64,000 nt of DNA from a phage. Below, in pieces: positions 10,089 to 54,650 of this stretch. The stretch lies in sequence record PZ452595.1. The stretch is one strand, 5' to 3'. The stretch's first letter is position 1, and every line of letters begins with the position of its first letter. The notes under the pieces are model-generated. The model had not been told where the DNA came from, did not search any database, and was given only the letters and a program-made list of their open reading frames with translations. The translations under genes were made by a program, and so were the position numbers.

Positions 10089-12353
10089 TCATAATTTACA
10101 GGATGAACAATCTTCAGCTTTTGGAGTTTCTATTTCATAATCATCAGTACCAGAACCATCACGGGTATTATGATAATAGAAATTTTTTCCGCCAAAATAC
10201 CAAAAATACAAAAGGTCATCAATCATTATTGACATTGGAACCTTGCCTTTAGGGAAGATTTGGGGGTCATAATATGTATTCGCTGAAGCTGATTGACACA
10301 CCCATTTCAGCATAATAGCTACCTGCGTAAGATAAGGTTTATTACCTTTCTTAGCTAATTTCCATGTATAATCATAGAGGTCTATGTTATGCTCAATATT
10401 GGGCACGACTTGATTAAAGGAGCCCTCTTTTGATTCTTTAACAGAGACTGGTCCACGTGGAGGCTCGATACCGTTTGTACTGTTAGAAACTTGGGAAGAT
10501 GACTCACATGGCATAAGTGCTGATAATGTGCTATTACGGATGCCAAAGAGCTTAAGGTCTTCCCGCAGCGACGACCAGTCACAAACGTATTTTGGAGCTG
10601 CGATTTGGTCAATCTTTTTATTGTACCAGTCGATAGGTAATTCGCCTCGAGACCAACGAGTGTCTGAATAATATTCGCAAGGTCCTTTTTCTTTGGCGAG
10701 CTTAATGGATGCTTTAATGAGTCCATACTGTAATCTCTCAAATAGTTCATGTGTTAAATCGTTAGCATCTTCATAAGAAGCAAAGTTACTTGCCAGCCAA
10801 GCTGCATAGTTAGTAACACCTACACCGAGGTTACGACGCTTTTTAGCTTTTTCTGCTTCAGGAACTGGATATCCTTGGTAATCCAAAAGATTATCAAGAG
10901 CGCGAACTTGAACTTCTGCCAATTCATTAATTTTATCTTGGTCTTGCCAGTCAAAATTATCTAGTACGAATGCAGAGAGAGTACACAATCCAATTTCAGC
11001 ATCAGGACTATTCACATCATTTGTTGGAATAGCAATTTCACAGCACAAGTTACTCTGACGAATAGGTGCCTTTTCACGAATAAACGGAGTATAGTTATTC
11101 GTATTATCAATGAACTGTACATAAATCCTTGCTGTTCCTGAGCGTTCAGTCATGAGCAATTCAAATAGTTCACGGGCTTTAATACGCTTTTTACGAATAT
11201 TAGGGTCTTTTTCTGCTGCTTCGTATAATTCACGGAAACGGTCTTGGTCTTTAAAATAAGAATAATAAAGCTCGCCACCCATTTCATGCGGACTGAACAA
11301 AGTAATGTAATCGTTCTTTCCAAAACGTTCCATCATCAAATCATTCAGCTGAACACCATAATCCATATGACGAATGCGGTTTTCTTCTACACCTTTGTTA
11401 TTTTTCAAAACGAGAAGATTTTCAACTTCCAAATGCCAAATAGGATAATAAGCAGTAGCAGCGCCGCCACGAATTCCACCCTGTGAGCATGATTTAACAG
11501 CAGTCTGAAAATGTTTCCAAAAAGGAATAACCCCAGTATGGCGTACTTCACCCATGCCAATCTTAGAACCTTCGGCACGAATCATACCAACGTTAATACC
11601 GATTCCAGCTCGTTTGGAAATATATTCAACAATTGAAGCAGAAGCCTTATTGATAGACTTCAGCGAATCTCCTGCCTCAATAACAACGCATGAACTAAAC
11701 TGTCGAGTCGGAGTACGACAACCAGCCATAATAGGAGTTGGCAATGAAATCTGTCGAGTAGATACTGCTTCATAAAAACGAATAACATGTTTTAATCTAT
11801 CAACAGGTTCATCTTGATGCAGTGCCATTCCAATAGTCATAAATGCAAACTGCGGAGTTTCATAAATTTGACCAGTGGTTTTATCTTTAACTAGATATTT
11901 TTCTTTTAATTGCATCGCCCCGGAATAAGTAAATTCCATATCCCGCTCGTGCTTAATTTTTGATTCTAAAAATGTAATTTCTTCTGCTGAATATTTTGAC
12001 AATAATTCAGGGTCATATTTACCTTCATTTACACAGTAAGAAATATGGTCAATAAATGAACGTGGTTCATACTGCCCATAAACATGCTTACGAAGAGCAA
12101 ACATTAAACAGCGTGCAGCTACATATTGATAATCAGGTTCTTCAACCGAAATAGAATTCGCAGCAGCCTTAATGACAATAGTCTGAATGTCATCAGTTGT
12201 CATTCCATCACGGAGATATGATTTAATATTTTCATATAATTCATAAGGATCTACTGATGTTCCCTCAGCTGCCCAAGATAAAACTTTAATAATTTTTTGT
12301 GGGTCAAAGCTCTGAGAAACACCACTACTTTTGATAACATTAATTAATTGCAT
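10089..12353 (-). CDS. nrdA: ribonucleotide reductase large subunit
   Basis: 754 aa, [25 protein letters not shown]...; ATP-cone N-terminus and class Ia active-site cysteines; same length as T4 NrdA. Confidence 0.96.
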   Translation of the reverse strand: MQLINVIKSSGVSQSFDPQKIIKVLSWAAEGTSVDPYELYENIKSYLRDGMTTDDIQTIVIKAAANSISVEEPDYQYVAARCLMFALRKHVYGQYEPRSFIDHISYCVNEGKYDPELLSKYSAEEITFLESKIKHERDMEFTYSGAMQLKEKYLVKDKTTGQIYETPQFAFMTIGMALHQDEPVDRLKHVIRFYEAVSTRQISLPTPIMAGCRTPTRQFSSCVVIEAGDSLKSINKASASIVEYISKRAGIGINVGMIRAEGSKIGMGEVRHTGVIPFWKHFQTAVKSCSQGGIRGGAATAYYPIWHLEVENLLVLKNNKGVEENRIRHMDYGVQLNDLMMERFGKNDYITLFSPHEMGGELYYSYFKDQDRFRELYEAAEKDPNIRKKRIKARELFELLMTERSGTARIYVQFIDNTNNYTPFIREKAPIRQSNLCCEIAIPTNDVNSPDAEIGLCTLSAFVLDNFDWQDQDKINELAEVQVRALDNLLDYQGYPVPEAEKAKKRRNLGVGVTNYAAWLASNFASYEDANDLTHELFERLQYGLIKASIKLAKEKGPCEYYSDTRWSRGELPIDWYNKKIDQIAAPKYVCDWSSLREDLKLFGIRNSTLSALMPCESSSQVSNSTNGIEPPRGPVSVKESKEGSFNQVVPNIEHNIDLYDYTWKLAKKGNKPYLTQVAIMLKWVCQSASANTYYDPQIFPKGKVPMSIMIDDLLYFWYFGGKNFYYHNTRDGSGTDDYEIETPKAEDCSSCKL

Positions 12354-30337: not shown

Positions 30338-30610
30338 TTATTTGTTCGTATACATCTCTAGATATCGATATACACCCTCAAAACCCTCGTTGAATTCGTC
30401 GATGAGGGTTTTCTTATCTTCCTGAGTTAATTCAGAAACAATTTTACGGAATGAATTCTGATTTAACTTTCTACCTTCATGCGTTACTCCAATCTCATTC
30501 AGAAATGCAATAAAATTAGCACGATTTTCAACAATATCTTCTCTGGAAAATTTAATCAAAATAGACGCAACAGTAATAATTTCACGAACTGTATCAATGT
30601 TTTTATTCAT
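30338..30610 (-). CDS. asiA: anti-sigma70 factor AsiA
   Basis: 90 aa, MNKNIDTVREIITVASILIKFSREDIVENRANFIAFLNEIG...; matches T4 AsiA; convergent with t. Confidence 0.95.
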   Translation of the reverse strand: MNKNIDTVREIITVASILIKFSREDIVENRANFIAFLNEIGVTHEGRKLNQNSFRKIVSELTQEDKKTLIDEFNEGFEGVYRYLEMYTNK

Positions 30611-32429: not shown

Positions 32430-33065
32430 TCACAGTTCAGATGCTACAGTGATTACTGCTTCAATGTTTTCTGCCGAGCGTTTAATGTCAAGATACACAT
32501 TACCGTTTTTAGCGATTTTACATGACATTCCAATATCAGTAAATTTCTGAATATGATGTTCCATCATTTTGTATCCAAAAATTCGCATATTTCCATTGTT
32601 GTTAATTTCAAAATTACGAATTCCGTGAGTACGTTTTTCTAAAATAGCGAGATAGTTACTACGATAAGTTTCAACCTTTTTAAGAACAAATCCATTTTCA
32701 TCTAAAAGTTTTAACATGAAGTCTTTATCTTCTTCCATATCGGAAGTAATTTCGCGAGCTTTACGAGTTGCTCGTTTTTTCAGCAGTTCCGGAGCATTTT
32801 CTTGTGCGTATAAAGTTGCTGCATTTGAAATAATATCCTGAGCTTCGCCTGTAATGATTAATCCATCACCAGATTTCTCTACCAGGCCTTTTTTAATCAA
32901 TACCCCAATATTACTATTAACTACTGCGTTACCTAAATCTGGATGCACTTCACGAACTTCTGCAGCTGTAATGAAATCTTTCTTAGCAATAGTAATTAAA
33001 ATCGCAGCAGTTTTTTCATTCAGAACATCGTTAGAAGCTTTGATGATGTAAGTTACTTTAGACAT
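32430..33065 (-). CDS. motA: MotA middle-transcription activator
   Basis: 211 aa, MSKVTYIIKASNDVLNEKTAAILITIAKK...; length and position next to gene 52 match T4 MotA. Confidence 0.92.
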   Translation of the reverse strand: MSKVTYIIKASNDVLNEKTAAILITIAKKDFITAAEVREVHPDLGNAVVNSNIGVLIKKGLVEKSGDGLIITGEAQDIISNAATLYAQENAPELLKKRATRKAREITSDMEEDKDFMLKLLDENGFVLKKVETYRSNYLAILEKRTHGIRNFEINNNGNMRIFGYKMMEHHIQKFTDIGMSCKIAKNGNVYLDIKRSAENIEAVITVASEL

Positions 33066-49143: not shown

Positions 49144-49451
49144 CGTAAATTCCCTGCAATTGGTATACTAACAATACGCCCAGTATCTAAAATTCGCTGA
49201 TATAATCTTTGTGTGTCTACGTCAGGCTTAACATGTTTAACTTCTATTTTATTAAACCAAAACTTACGTGGAGTCTCAACTAATCTTGGAATTCCCTTAC
49301 CTAAAGCTAGTCGATACTGTTCTTTAAGAGTAGTAAATACTTTATCAGCAATCTTCCATTCAAAAAATACAGCAGGACGATGTTCATCAAGCGGAACTGG
49401 CGCCGTAAATCCGTCTTTGTCTCGGTAAACTATCGCATATACATAAACCAT
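49140..49451 (-). CDS. hypothetical protein (dda.1 position)
   Basis: 103 aa, ATG start, stop overlaps dda start. Confidence 0.55.
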   Translation of the reverse strand: MVYVYAIVYRDKDGFTAPVPLDEHRPAVFFEWKIADKVFTTLKEQYRLALGKGIPRLVETPRKFWFNKIEVKHVKPDVDTQRLYQRILDTGRIVSIPIAGNLR

Positions 49452-49452
49452 A

Positions 49453-50199
49453 TTATCCTCGGATAAGTTTAAAAATTGAACAATTTAGCGGATATCCTCT
49501 TTTCAGTTTAAGTTTATCAATAAAAGACAAATTTTGATACCGCTCTACACCTTGAATAATTTTATCACACATATCATATTGCATTTCTGCTTCTGACAAC
49601 TTTTTCACAATTTTCCAATCCGAGCCTTTAAGAAGAACGTTCAATTTAACAACTTCAGCGCCTTCTGCTATGCGAGAACCATCAATACGAGCTTTAAGTG
49701 CTATAATTCTTAGCTTAATGTCAGAGGTCTGTTTTGATTTAGAAAGCTGAGAAATGTGTTCAATTCGGTTTTCACGTTTTTTCTGTATAGCTTTAATTTG
49801 ATTATAAGTCTTTTTGATTTTAGCCCATTTCTTTTCATCTAAATTTAGTTTATGAACTTTTTTCGCAGATGAACGACCAATTCGCAAAGCAAATAAATCA
49901 CGCTTTTCAATTAACTCTTCTAAAGTATAATCAGAACGAAATGTATTATACTTTTTCTTTACTGCAATAACATTCCCTTTAATGTATCCAACGTTATTAT
50001 CAAAACGTTCTAATGATAATTTCTCTCCTTCAATACGATTATCAAAAGGTTCTCCCGAGTAAGCGCAAACTTTTTGATCTAAAATGTTCTTAATGTAATT
50101 GAAGTCTAAGTTAAAATCTTTAGAACGTCTTTTTGCAGATGCCTGAGTATGCTCTAAACGACGTTTAATTTTACGAATTTGGTTATTAGACAGCTTCAT
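49453..50199 (-). CDS. srd: Srd, sigma-factor-like regulator
   Basis: 248 aa, ATG start; basic protein; position between dda.1 and modA. Confidence 0.65.
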   Translation of the reverse strand: MKLSNNQIRKIKRRLEHTQASAKRRSKDFNLDFNYIKNILDQKVCAYSGEPFDNRIEGEKLSLERFDNNVGYIKGNVIAVKKKYNTFRSDYTLEELIEKRDLFALRIGRSSAKKVHKLNLDEKKWAKIKKTYNQIKAIQKKRENRIEHISQLSKSKQTSDIKLRIIALKARIDGSRIAEGAEVVKLNVLLKGSDWKIVKKLSEAEMQYDMCDKIIQGVERYQNLSFIDKLKLKRGYPLNCSIFKLIRG

Positions 50200-50235
50200 A
50201 TTTTTCTCACATCTTACGGACGGTTAACTACTTAT

Positions 50236-50264
50236 ACTATAACATTTTTACTTTAACTTGTAAA
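50236..50264 (-). promoter_or_regulatory. T4-type early promoter upstream of srd
   Basis: Minus sense GTTTACA, 17-nt spacer, TGt-TATAGT. Confidence 0.55.
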
Positions 50265-50322
50265 CAACTTTATGTAAAAATGCTTTAAAACTTTCATGGT
50301 ATAATGAATCTAAGTCCTTCCA

Positions 50323-50925
50323 TTATAGATTAAATCCTTCAAATTCAAGAGTATAGATAGTGTATGTTGAATACTTTTTGTACTCATATCTATCTGCAAT
50401 TCTAAATACACTTCCAGCTGGTATCATTACTTCTTGTTCATCTGAAACTAATTCCATATTACGATAACGATGGCTATCCGGAAACTTAAAGTTTGGATTG
50501 TATTCTTTACAGCGTAGAGCTTTTATAGCATACTCCTGGAAATTGAATACCATAGGAGCTTTGAATTCAAAAATAACTTGTGTGTTATACTCTAAACCAG
50601 AAGCAAAATGTAGAGCTATATTTTTATCATATGAAGCTGATACTACTTTATCAAATGTAATAATATCAATTCCTTGATTTAACACCTGCTTAGTCTCAGC
50701 TGGAACACCTCTCCAAAGAGGTTTATCGTTTGGAACCAAACGAGATTTGATTATTTCATTTAACCAAGAATGATCGTCTGGTTTATTAGTAATACAATGA
50801 ATTAAAAGTTCAATTTCAGATAAATTAAACCCTTCAGAAAGTAATTCTTCACGAATAGAAGCACGCACCGATGCATCCATTGATTTTATTTTAAAATCTT
50901 TTAGTTGCATTACTGAGTATTTCAT
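50323..50925 (-). CDS. modA: ADP-ribosyltransferase ModA
   Basis: 200 aa, ATG start; paralogous to the adjacent 207-aa ORF; same lengths and order as T4 modA/modB. Confidence 0.8.
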   Translation of the reverse strand: MKYSVMQLKDFKIKSMDASVRASIREELLSEGFNLSEIELLIHCITNKPDDHSWLNEIIKSRLVPNDKPLWRGVPAETKQVLNQGIDIITFDKVVSASYDKNIALHFASGLEYNTQVIFEFKAPMVFNFQEYAIKALRCKEYNPNFKFPDSHRYRNMELVSDEQEVMIPAGSVFRIADRYEYKKYSTYTIYTLEFEGFNL

Positions 50926-51545
50926 TCAACTACCTCAATATCATAAACTTTAAATGTTCCAAATGAATCGTGTAATTTTTCTTTTGAAATAGAAGTTATT
51001 CTATACTTTCCAATTGGAATCATCCATTCTTGTTCACGCACAATCATCATTAAGTTATCAGTACGCTCTGAATCTAGCCCATCAGTATCTTCATACGTGT
51101 ACTTAAACTCAGTATTAGGAGAAGAAAGTATAATATCGCTGATATGGTCAGAATAATTAAAAGCTTTATTAGTTTTTAAGCGAAGTATTATTTTAGTAAA
51201 ATATTCAGCGTAAGAAAAAGAACATGCTGTGAGCAAACTAGTAGTAAATGAATCTACTCTATTCGTTGAAAACACTTCTCCAACTTGTAAATCTTTAATA
51301 AGTTCTTCTGTTGATTTTGATATACCACGATATAACTGATAAGGTGATTTAGTTAAATGCTTTTTAATGATTTTATTCAACTGCCGATGAAGAGCTTCAT
51401 TCTTTTTGGCTTCCATACGTTGCCAAAGAACTGACTGCTCAAAGTCAGTAAATTTTTCACAGACCTTTTTATACATATCATATTGAAAATCGACGCTTTC
51501 AGCTTTTATAGATAACTGTTCAACATCTGCAAGATTAATAATCAT
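50922..51545 (-). CDS. modB: ADP-ribosyltransferase ModB
   Basis: 207 aa, ATG start; stop overlaps modA start. Confidence 0.8.
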   Translation of the reverse strand: MIINLADVEQLSIKAESVDFQYDMYKKVCEKFTDFEQSVLWQRMEAKKNEALHRQLNKIIKKHLTKSPYQLYRGISKSTEELIKDLQVGEVFSTNRVDSFTTSLLTACSFSYAEYFTKIILRLKTNKAFNYSDHISDIILSSPNTEFKYTYEDTDGLDSERTDNLMMIVREQEWMIPIGKYRITSISKEKLHDSFGTFKVYDIEVVE

Positions 51546-51571
51546 GATAGCCTCCGTATACTTCAGAAGCT

Positions 51572-51600
51572 ATCATATCATCGTTAGAAAGGAAAGTAAA
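51572..51600 (-). promoter_or_regulatory. T4-type early promoter upstream of modB
   Basis: Minus sense GTTTACT, 17-nt spacer, TGa-TATGAT. Confidence 0.55.
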
Positions 51601-51612
51601 CAACTTTTTGAA

Positions 51613-51795
51613 TTATTTTGCCCAGGGAGCCCAGGGCGGAGGGTCAAGATGGTATGAAGCTAGTTCTTCTAGAAGAGCATCTGGGGCTTCAATTCCATAA
51701 TTCTGTAATACTATACGGTACTCTTTCTTATAATCACTGGAATCATTCTGGTTATTCGTAGAATGATTATCTTCTAACATCTCAAATAAATCCAT
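51613..51795 (-). CDS. hypothetical acidic protein
   Basis: 60 aa, ATG start. Confidence 0.45.
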   Translation of the reverse strand: MDLFEMLEDNHSTNNQNDSSDYKKEYRIVLQNYGIEAPDALLEELASYHLDPPPWAPWAK

Positions 51796-54592: not shown

Positions 54593-54626
54593 TATTTTTC
54601 CTTTCAATTCATGGGTTAGTAGATTA

Positions 54627-54650
54627 ATTATACAATAAATATATAAAGCA
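54627..54650 (-). promoter_or_regulatory. MotA-dependent middle promoter for gene 56
   Basis: Minus sense tTGCTTtA (MotA box), 11-nt spacer, TATAAT. Confidence 0.55.

Follow-up and report, generated by a model that had tools for sequence, protein, structure and literature searches.

The closest described relatives of the site discussed here are the middle promoters of bacteriophage T4. The 58 promoters of the published catalogue (Hinton 2010) have a common architecture, consisting of a MotA box at -30, a spacer of 12 +/- 1 nt, a -10 element and, optionally, an extended -10 TGn, and all of them are located on the minus strand. Two MotA promoters deserve particular attention. PuvsY lies upstream of uvsY, which it expresses, and has a proven R-loop/origin role as the primer promoter of oriF. 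P34i (oriG), also a documented origin promoter, is located on the minus strand within the late gene 34, where it is antisense to its host gene and has a non-coding output. A further precedent for antisense RNA in T4 is gene 32, antisense transcription of which was reportedly described by Belin and colleagues in 1987.

Here, we describe a candidate middle promoter that has the same architecture as the catalogued ones, but lies on the plus strand and is absent from the list of 58. It is located in a 64,000-nt stretch of phage DNA (record PZ452595.1), which is referred to as the window. The phage is a Tequatrovirus, ~98.7% identical to T4 at the mod locus; window coordinates equal T4 coordinates plus 38,415, and the identical promoter sequence is found in T4 at 11866-11890. 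The candidate, composed of TGCTTTA, a 12-nt spacer and TGGTATAAT, is housed in the gap of 123 bp that separates modA from srd (Table 1). The original prediction had described a MotA box, a 12-nt spacer and an extended -10 on the plus strand, aimed into the 3' end of modA amid minus-strand genes. The elements can indeed be read directly at 50281-50305, and the gene names and the geometry proved correct, since the surrounding ORFs (dda, dda.1, srd, modA and modB) all are on the minus strand.

The plus strand reads aaaTGCTTTAaaactttcaTGGTATAATgaatctA at 50278-50312, and the layout of the gap on this strand is aaaTGCTTTA-aaactttcaTGG-TATAAT-gaatctA. Together with its 5' AAA (50278-50280), the MotA box forms AAATGCTTTA at 50278-50287, which conforms to (a/t)(a/t)(a/t)TGCTT(t/c)A. 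The spacer of 12 bp falls within the 12 +/- 1 bp of middle promoters, and TGGTATAAT at 50297-50305 combines an excellent sigma-70 -10 element with an extended -10 TGn. The predicted +1, A50312, is 11 nt from the modA stop codon (50323-50325, minus strand). Furthermore, the genes for both MotA and AsiA are present within the window.

Table 1. Window coordinates of the candidate promoter, the surrounding genes and the middle-promoter activators
Feature	Position	Strand	Remarks
MotA box TGCTTTA, 7/7 to consensus	50281..50287	+	centred near -30
12-nt spacer	50288..50299	+	last three bases 50297-50299 = extended -10 TGn (TGG)
sigma-70 -10 hexamer TATAAT, 6/6	50300..50305	+	
discriminator and initial transcribed sequence GAATCTAAGTCC	50306..50317	+	predicted +1 = A 50312
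predicted non-coding transcript antisense to modA	50312..50925	+	inferred from geometry; possibly on into modB
srd	49453..50199	-	divergent from candidate promoter
T4 early-type srd promoter: TTTACA, 17 nt, TG-TATAGT	50236..50264	-	sense strand
modA, RNA polymerase alpha ADP-ribosyltransferase	50323..50925	-	gene candidate promoter points into
modB	50922-51545	-	possible extension of antisense transcript
motA, trans-activator required by middle promoters	32433..33065	-	97.6% identical to T4 MotA
asiA, co-activator required by middle promoters	30341..30610	-	100% identical to T4 AsiA

The locus harbors two further elements on the sense strand. One is a 10-nt motif, CGTCCGTAAG, in the srd 5' UTR (50213-50222), 14-23 nt upstream of the ATG. 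It is kept in T4, Dhaka-, Mosig-, Gapriver- and Jiaodavirus, where the remaining gap is unalignable, it constitutes the spacer of the antisense promoter in Mineola, and it is touched by a 7-nt deletion in three Tequatroviruses. This motif may be a translational operator or a processing site. The other is a 14-bp hairpin at 51543-51577 (minus strand; TATGATAGCTTCTGAAGTATACGGAGGCTATCATG) in which the Shine-Dalgarno sequence (GGAGG) and the ATG of modB are enclosed, and which could either occlude translation initiation or present a GGAG site to RegB.

Of the known promoters, PuvsY is the one that most invites comparison. It has in common with the candidate an exact 21-mer, TGGTATAATGAATCTAAGTCC, that spans positions -15 to +6 (21/21 identities; 27/29 when extended), and its mapped TSS (115371) is the A that corresponds to the predicted +1 of the candidate. 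This means that the polymerase-contacting segments downstream of the spacer are identical to those of a proven strong promoter. The MotA box is of the consensus class in both sites, which also share an extended -10 and a +1 A, though the box and spacer of PuvsY are TGCTTCA and 13 nt, as compared to TGCTTTA and 12 nt in the candidate. They differ more clearly in their surroundings, in that the candidate is aimed at the 3' end of a convergent gene, lacks a gene that it could express and does not coincide with a mapped origin. P34i resembles the candidate in its antisense orientation and non-coding output, whereas the candidate is an intergenic plus-strand promoter aimed at early genes, and the transcribed sequences of the two are unrelated.

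The original prediction had considered that the site might be a chance match in AT-rich DNA, with roughly one expected per genome. This estimate turned out to be about 100-fold too high, since, under a 3rd-order Markov null model, a 169-kb strand is expected to carry 0.007 sites that reach 22 bits and 0.013 that reach 20 bits. The scores come from a weight matrix built from the 51 of the 58 published T4 middle promoters that align cleanly, all of them on the minus strand, with start sites taken from Table 1 of Hinton 2010 and sequences extracted from the T4 genome. With this matrix, the candidate ranks first (23.1 bits) among ~338,000 T4 positions on both strands. The second rank is held by another unlisted plus-strand site, in the gap between gene 3 and gene 2 (22.6 bits), PuvsY comes third, and ranks 3-20 are all validated promoters, such that the next plus-strand match appears only at rank 42 (15.5 bits). 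In terms of the consensus, the candidate is a better match than 57 of the 58 catalogued promoters; a single validated promoter, P45.2, has both elements perfect (1/58). The window contains a single copy of the exact motif including TGn, as compared to no copy in any of 100 dinucleotide-preserving shuffles, and the looser pattern TGCTTYA-N11-13-TATAAT has three matches as compared to 0.08 expected.

The site in the gene 3/gene 2 gap (T4 NC_000866 75964-76000, plus strand; L003:25964-26000) is outside the window and can be regarded as a sister of the candidate. It reads TGCTTTA, 13 nt, TGGTATAAT and then gggtctAAGTCCCTTCCATT, with a TSS near 76000, and thus is likewise a perfect MotA-type match on the "wrong" strand that is absent from the published list. 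It is kept in WG01 (Dhakavirus) and JK42 (Mosigvirus), where its distance from the start codon of gene 3 is exactly 46 nt, and a search of VR7, in which gene 2 is adjoined by a mob endonuclease gene, did not reveal it. The promoter sub-family of the candidate and PuvsY also includes the sister site (TGGTATAATGGGTCTAAGTCCCTTCCATT) and the validated PnrdC.7 (TGGTATAATGGTTCTAAGCCC). In this context, it is worth mentioning that P31 (window 1608, minus strand) and PtRNAE (T4 72593) are nearly identical over ~40 nt (aaatgctttaagaaYtatttgttattattaaYtcA). Judged by their sequences, T4 middle promoters thus occur as paralogous families, P31/PtRNAE being one and PuvsY/candidate/gene 3-2/PnrdC.7 another.

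Two sites on the minus strand were also found in the course of these searches. The first, at window ~2848 (T4 ~132780), consists of AACCGCTTTA, 13 nt and GAATATAAT (18.2 bits) and is 59 nt from the listed start of Pcd (132839), where the box matches at just 3/7 and the -10 at 3/6 positions; the coordinate published for Pcd may be off, or two promoters may be present. The second is a perfect TGCTTTA, 11 nt, TATAAT at 54627-54650 with a TSS at 54620 (18.6 bits). It is missing from the top T4 matches, the region corresponds to T4 segF/56, and it may be a middle promoter specific to the PZ452595.1 phage.

The most informative evidence on the candidate comes from its conservation. Nine Tequatrovirus sequences, among them the most divergent matches (91.7%), were aligned. 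Only three columns vary within 50278-50322, the promoter half of the gap, namely position 6 of the box (T/C) and two positions of the spacer, and the sole box variant, TGCTTCA, is one that the consensus Y allows. The segment 50297-50322 is invariant in all nine. The srd-proximal 78 nt of the same gap, by comparison, contain ~20 variable or indel columns.

Beyond Tequatrovirus, the gene order modB-modA-srd-dda.1-dda is kept in Dhakavirus, Mosigvirus, Gaprivervirus, Karamvirus and Jiaodavirus, even though ModA is only 25-36% identical, and MotA homologs were found in these other genera. In all five, the antisense position that best matches the weight matrix anywhere in the ~3.5-kb locus is found in the mod-srd gap, facing mod; as a positive control, the validated Pdda.1 was the top sense-strand match in three of the five (WG01, JK42 and VR7). 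A wider scan of IMG/VR that was anchored on ModA yielded only six near-identical loci, and the alignment of Srd was used instead. This gave 36 loci with 31-100% Srd identity, which represent 11 lineages and at least six genera. The top antisense match is in the mod-srd gap in 34 of these 36 loci, or in 35 if one counts L049, where the automated start-finder failed; in the remaining locus, L060, srd is matched only in part. The top matches score 14.8-23.1 bits, as compared to 4-14 bits for the second-best ones. In each of the 35 promoter-bearing loci, the gene upstream is a homolog of the Mod-type ADP-ribosyltransferases and the -10 is an invariant TATAAT. The predicted start is always 6-39 nt past the mod stop codon, and is separated from the srd ATG by a more variable interval of about 47 to 297 nt.

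A comparison of one representative from each of the 11 lineages reveals which positions are kept. GCTTT, TATAAT, G-6 and T-3 are present in 11/11, G+3 in ten and A+1 in nine, and because G-6, T-3, G+3 and A+1 lie outside the weight matrix, their retention is not an artifact of the search. The spacer is 12-13 nt long in all 11 lineages, but free in sequence, and from +9 onwards the information content drops below ~0.7 bits. Such a bipartite pattern with a free spacer reads as the signature of recognition by polymerase plus activator, and it points to selection acting on the promoter and its placement directly behind mod, not on the sequence of the RNA. In Mineola- and Karamvirus-type gaps, the MotA box is only a few nt from the srd RBS (about 6-15 nt in the Karamvirus and Jiaodavirus types). 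Hence, in the Mineola and Karamvirus types, sense transcription into srd must cross the promoter head-on.

We consider it probable that the candidate is a genuine MotA/AsiA-dependent middle promoter, i.e., one operating by sigma appropriation, and that its likeliest role is to shut down the mod-locus unit. The identity as a MotA/AsiA-dependent promoter can be assigned with high confidence on sequence grounds, while its firing in vivo, the extent of the RNA and its function are what we infer. In our model, sigma-70 polymerase remodelled by AsiA would, together with MotA, bind the -30 box and the extended -10 at ~3-4 min after infection. Transcription would start at A50312 and proceed rightwards, first crossing the 3' end of modA in antisense direction and probably continuing through more of modA and into modB, to give a non-coding product. 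Head-on transcription, complementary RNA or both would then shut down the early mod-locus unit at the early-to-middle switch, and read-through from the mod unit into srd would be shut down likewise. We favor interference as the function because selection appears to act on the promoter and its placement behind mod, and because srd-bound transcription crosses it in some lineages.

Published stranded RNA-seq data allow a first look at this model. In a comparison of a motA-amber mutant with wild type at 5 min, which is the single time point and concerns a leaky allele, neither modA (0.88x) nor modB (1.11x) changed significantly, and other early genes rose ~2x. In a dksA host, the corresponding values were 1.8x for modA and 1.6x for modB, which is about as for srd. 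The lack of a rise of modA mRNA in the motA-amber comparison weakens a simple model of mRNA destabilization, without refuting it. Also, the sister site faces late genes, where an early shut-off would make no sense for this very reason, such that a function common to both sites may differ from early-gene silencing.

As to the predicted antisense RNA itself, it does not fold more stably than shuffled sequence (z = +0.97), a scan of 49400-51700 against Rfam gave no match at E<=1, and neither a conserved ORF nor a terminator at fixed distance was found on the antisense transcript in the 11 lineages. Late-promoter cores (TATAAATA) as another source of antisense transcription were absent within 2 kb on either strand. 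At 50707-50743 of the plus strand, ~400 nt into the predicted transcript, there are two adjacent short palindromes, ACCTCTCCAAAGAGGT and TCGTTTGGAACCAAACGA, with weak plus-strand terminator scores; they lie in the coding sequence of modA and may be coincidental.

A different role for the same promoter would be that of an origin, in which the transcript would persist as an R-loop, from which leading-strand synthesis is primed in the rightward direction or recombination-dependent replication is seeded. The identity with the oriF promoter PuvsY over -15 to +6 is what makes this idea attractive, and T4's two proven R-loop origins each consist of a MotA promoter and a downstream unwinding element, with the promoter of oriG being antisense as well. 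Like oriF and oriG, the locus thus contains a middle-mode promoter, and the first 60 transcribed bp (+1 to +60) are 72% A+T, which ranks 8th of 60 promoters. However, this test for the unwinding element, based on nearest-neighbor duplex stability, places PuvsY 16th and P34i 46th of 60; as it does not set known origin promoters apart, it was dropped as uninformative. Against an origin speaks its location. The mapped origins of T4 have been described near soc, rI.-1, repEA, uvsY and gene 34; the nearest ones are those near soc (oriA, at about 15-17 kb) and rI.-1 (oriC), and none has been placed at 11.9 kb. Moreover, priming is in the minus direction at all four origins annotated in the T4 record. 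Altogether, an origin at this site strikes us as unlikely.

We regard it as very unlikely that the conserved block acts on the sense strand instead, be it as a 3' hairpin or terminator of modA or as an UP element of the srd early promoter. The T4 MotA box does lie at about -52 to -58 relative to the srd promoter, and hence in UP-element territory. However, the -10, discriminator and start are located at about -71 to -83, beyond the reach of any UP element, and it is precisely this segment that is most conserved. Furthermore, the Karamvirus and Jiaodavirus types leave no room for a sense promoter downstream of the box, no stable or conserved hairpin was detected over the block in six genera (z -0.7 to +1.3), and a spacer of fixed length (12-13 nt) but free sequence fits recognition by polymerase and not a hairpin or an A-tract. 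A sense-strand function thus is largely refuted.

A chance match, or a decaying and functionless relic that arose when recombination copied a promoter cassette from PuvsY, is highly improbable. Families of near-identical middle promoters such as P31 and PtRNAE indicate that promoter copies do spread in T4, and the transcript from the candidate is a prediction. But with 0.007 sites expected per strand, chance is excluded by the rank in T4, the null model, the identity with PuvsY and the conserved position and orientation, which settles in favor of a real promoter what the original prediction had left undecided. A relic is unlikely because a perfect -10 would not persist across genera whose flanks are unalignable; the position and orientation are kept in 35/36 loci, down to 31% Srd identity and with an invariant TATAAT, and this conservation refutes both versions. 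Finally, we give almost no credence to a small unannotated protein gene on the plus strand as the target of the promoter, because the two mechanical ORFs of 35 aa (GTG) and 59 aa (TTG), which start 49 and 187 nt downstream, have neither an ATG start nor a Shine-Dalgarno sequence, vary in start, frame and length across the 11 lineages and are missing from two of them, and because conservation is at noise level by +9.

Returning to the candidate as a MotA/AsiA-dependent promoter that would silence the mod unit, it is a new, or at least uncatalogued, middle promoter. In the versions searched, the T4 records NC_000866 and AF158101 list CDS and miscellaneous features only and carry no promoter annotation, and literature searches for MotA-dependent antisense promoters or for the candidate site returned no relevant description. 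Neither an antisense RNA nor an RNA from the mod locus is mentioned in the main text of the paper on RNAylation by ModB. A T4 dRNA-seq study (GSE255091) reports 150 TSSs, 22 of them antisense, and the 5' end of the candidate may already be among these public data. The deep conservation of the antisense arrangement appears to be unreported.

What does this mean for the biology of these phages? The T4 middle-promoter catalogue misses the two best consensus sites of the genome, which we ascribe to their location on the unexpected strand. The early-to-middle switch has been flagged in a review as mechanistically unexplained, and a conserved MotA promoter that fires head-on into the early unit for toxic ADP-ribosyltransferases would be a concrete candidate, one that is easily mutable because it lies in non-coding DNA. 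It is speculative that promoters on the "wrong" strand supply +1A, NAD-cappable RNAs to the adjacent RNAylation enzyme ModB. On a more general level, we tentatively raise the possibility that T4-type phages possess a small class of MotA promoters on the "wrong" strand that is deeply conserved, gives rise to non-coding RNAs and constitutes an unrecognized layer of the early-to-middle switch. Its members would be the site that follows the mod genes for ADP-ribosyltransferases and the one between gene 3 and gene 2, which are the strongest consensus matches in the genome and have a transcript start in common with the oriF promoter. If this is true, the role of the class would be, for example, the head-on silencing of early units, or the priming of R-loops.
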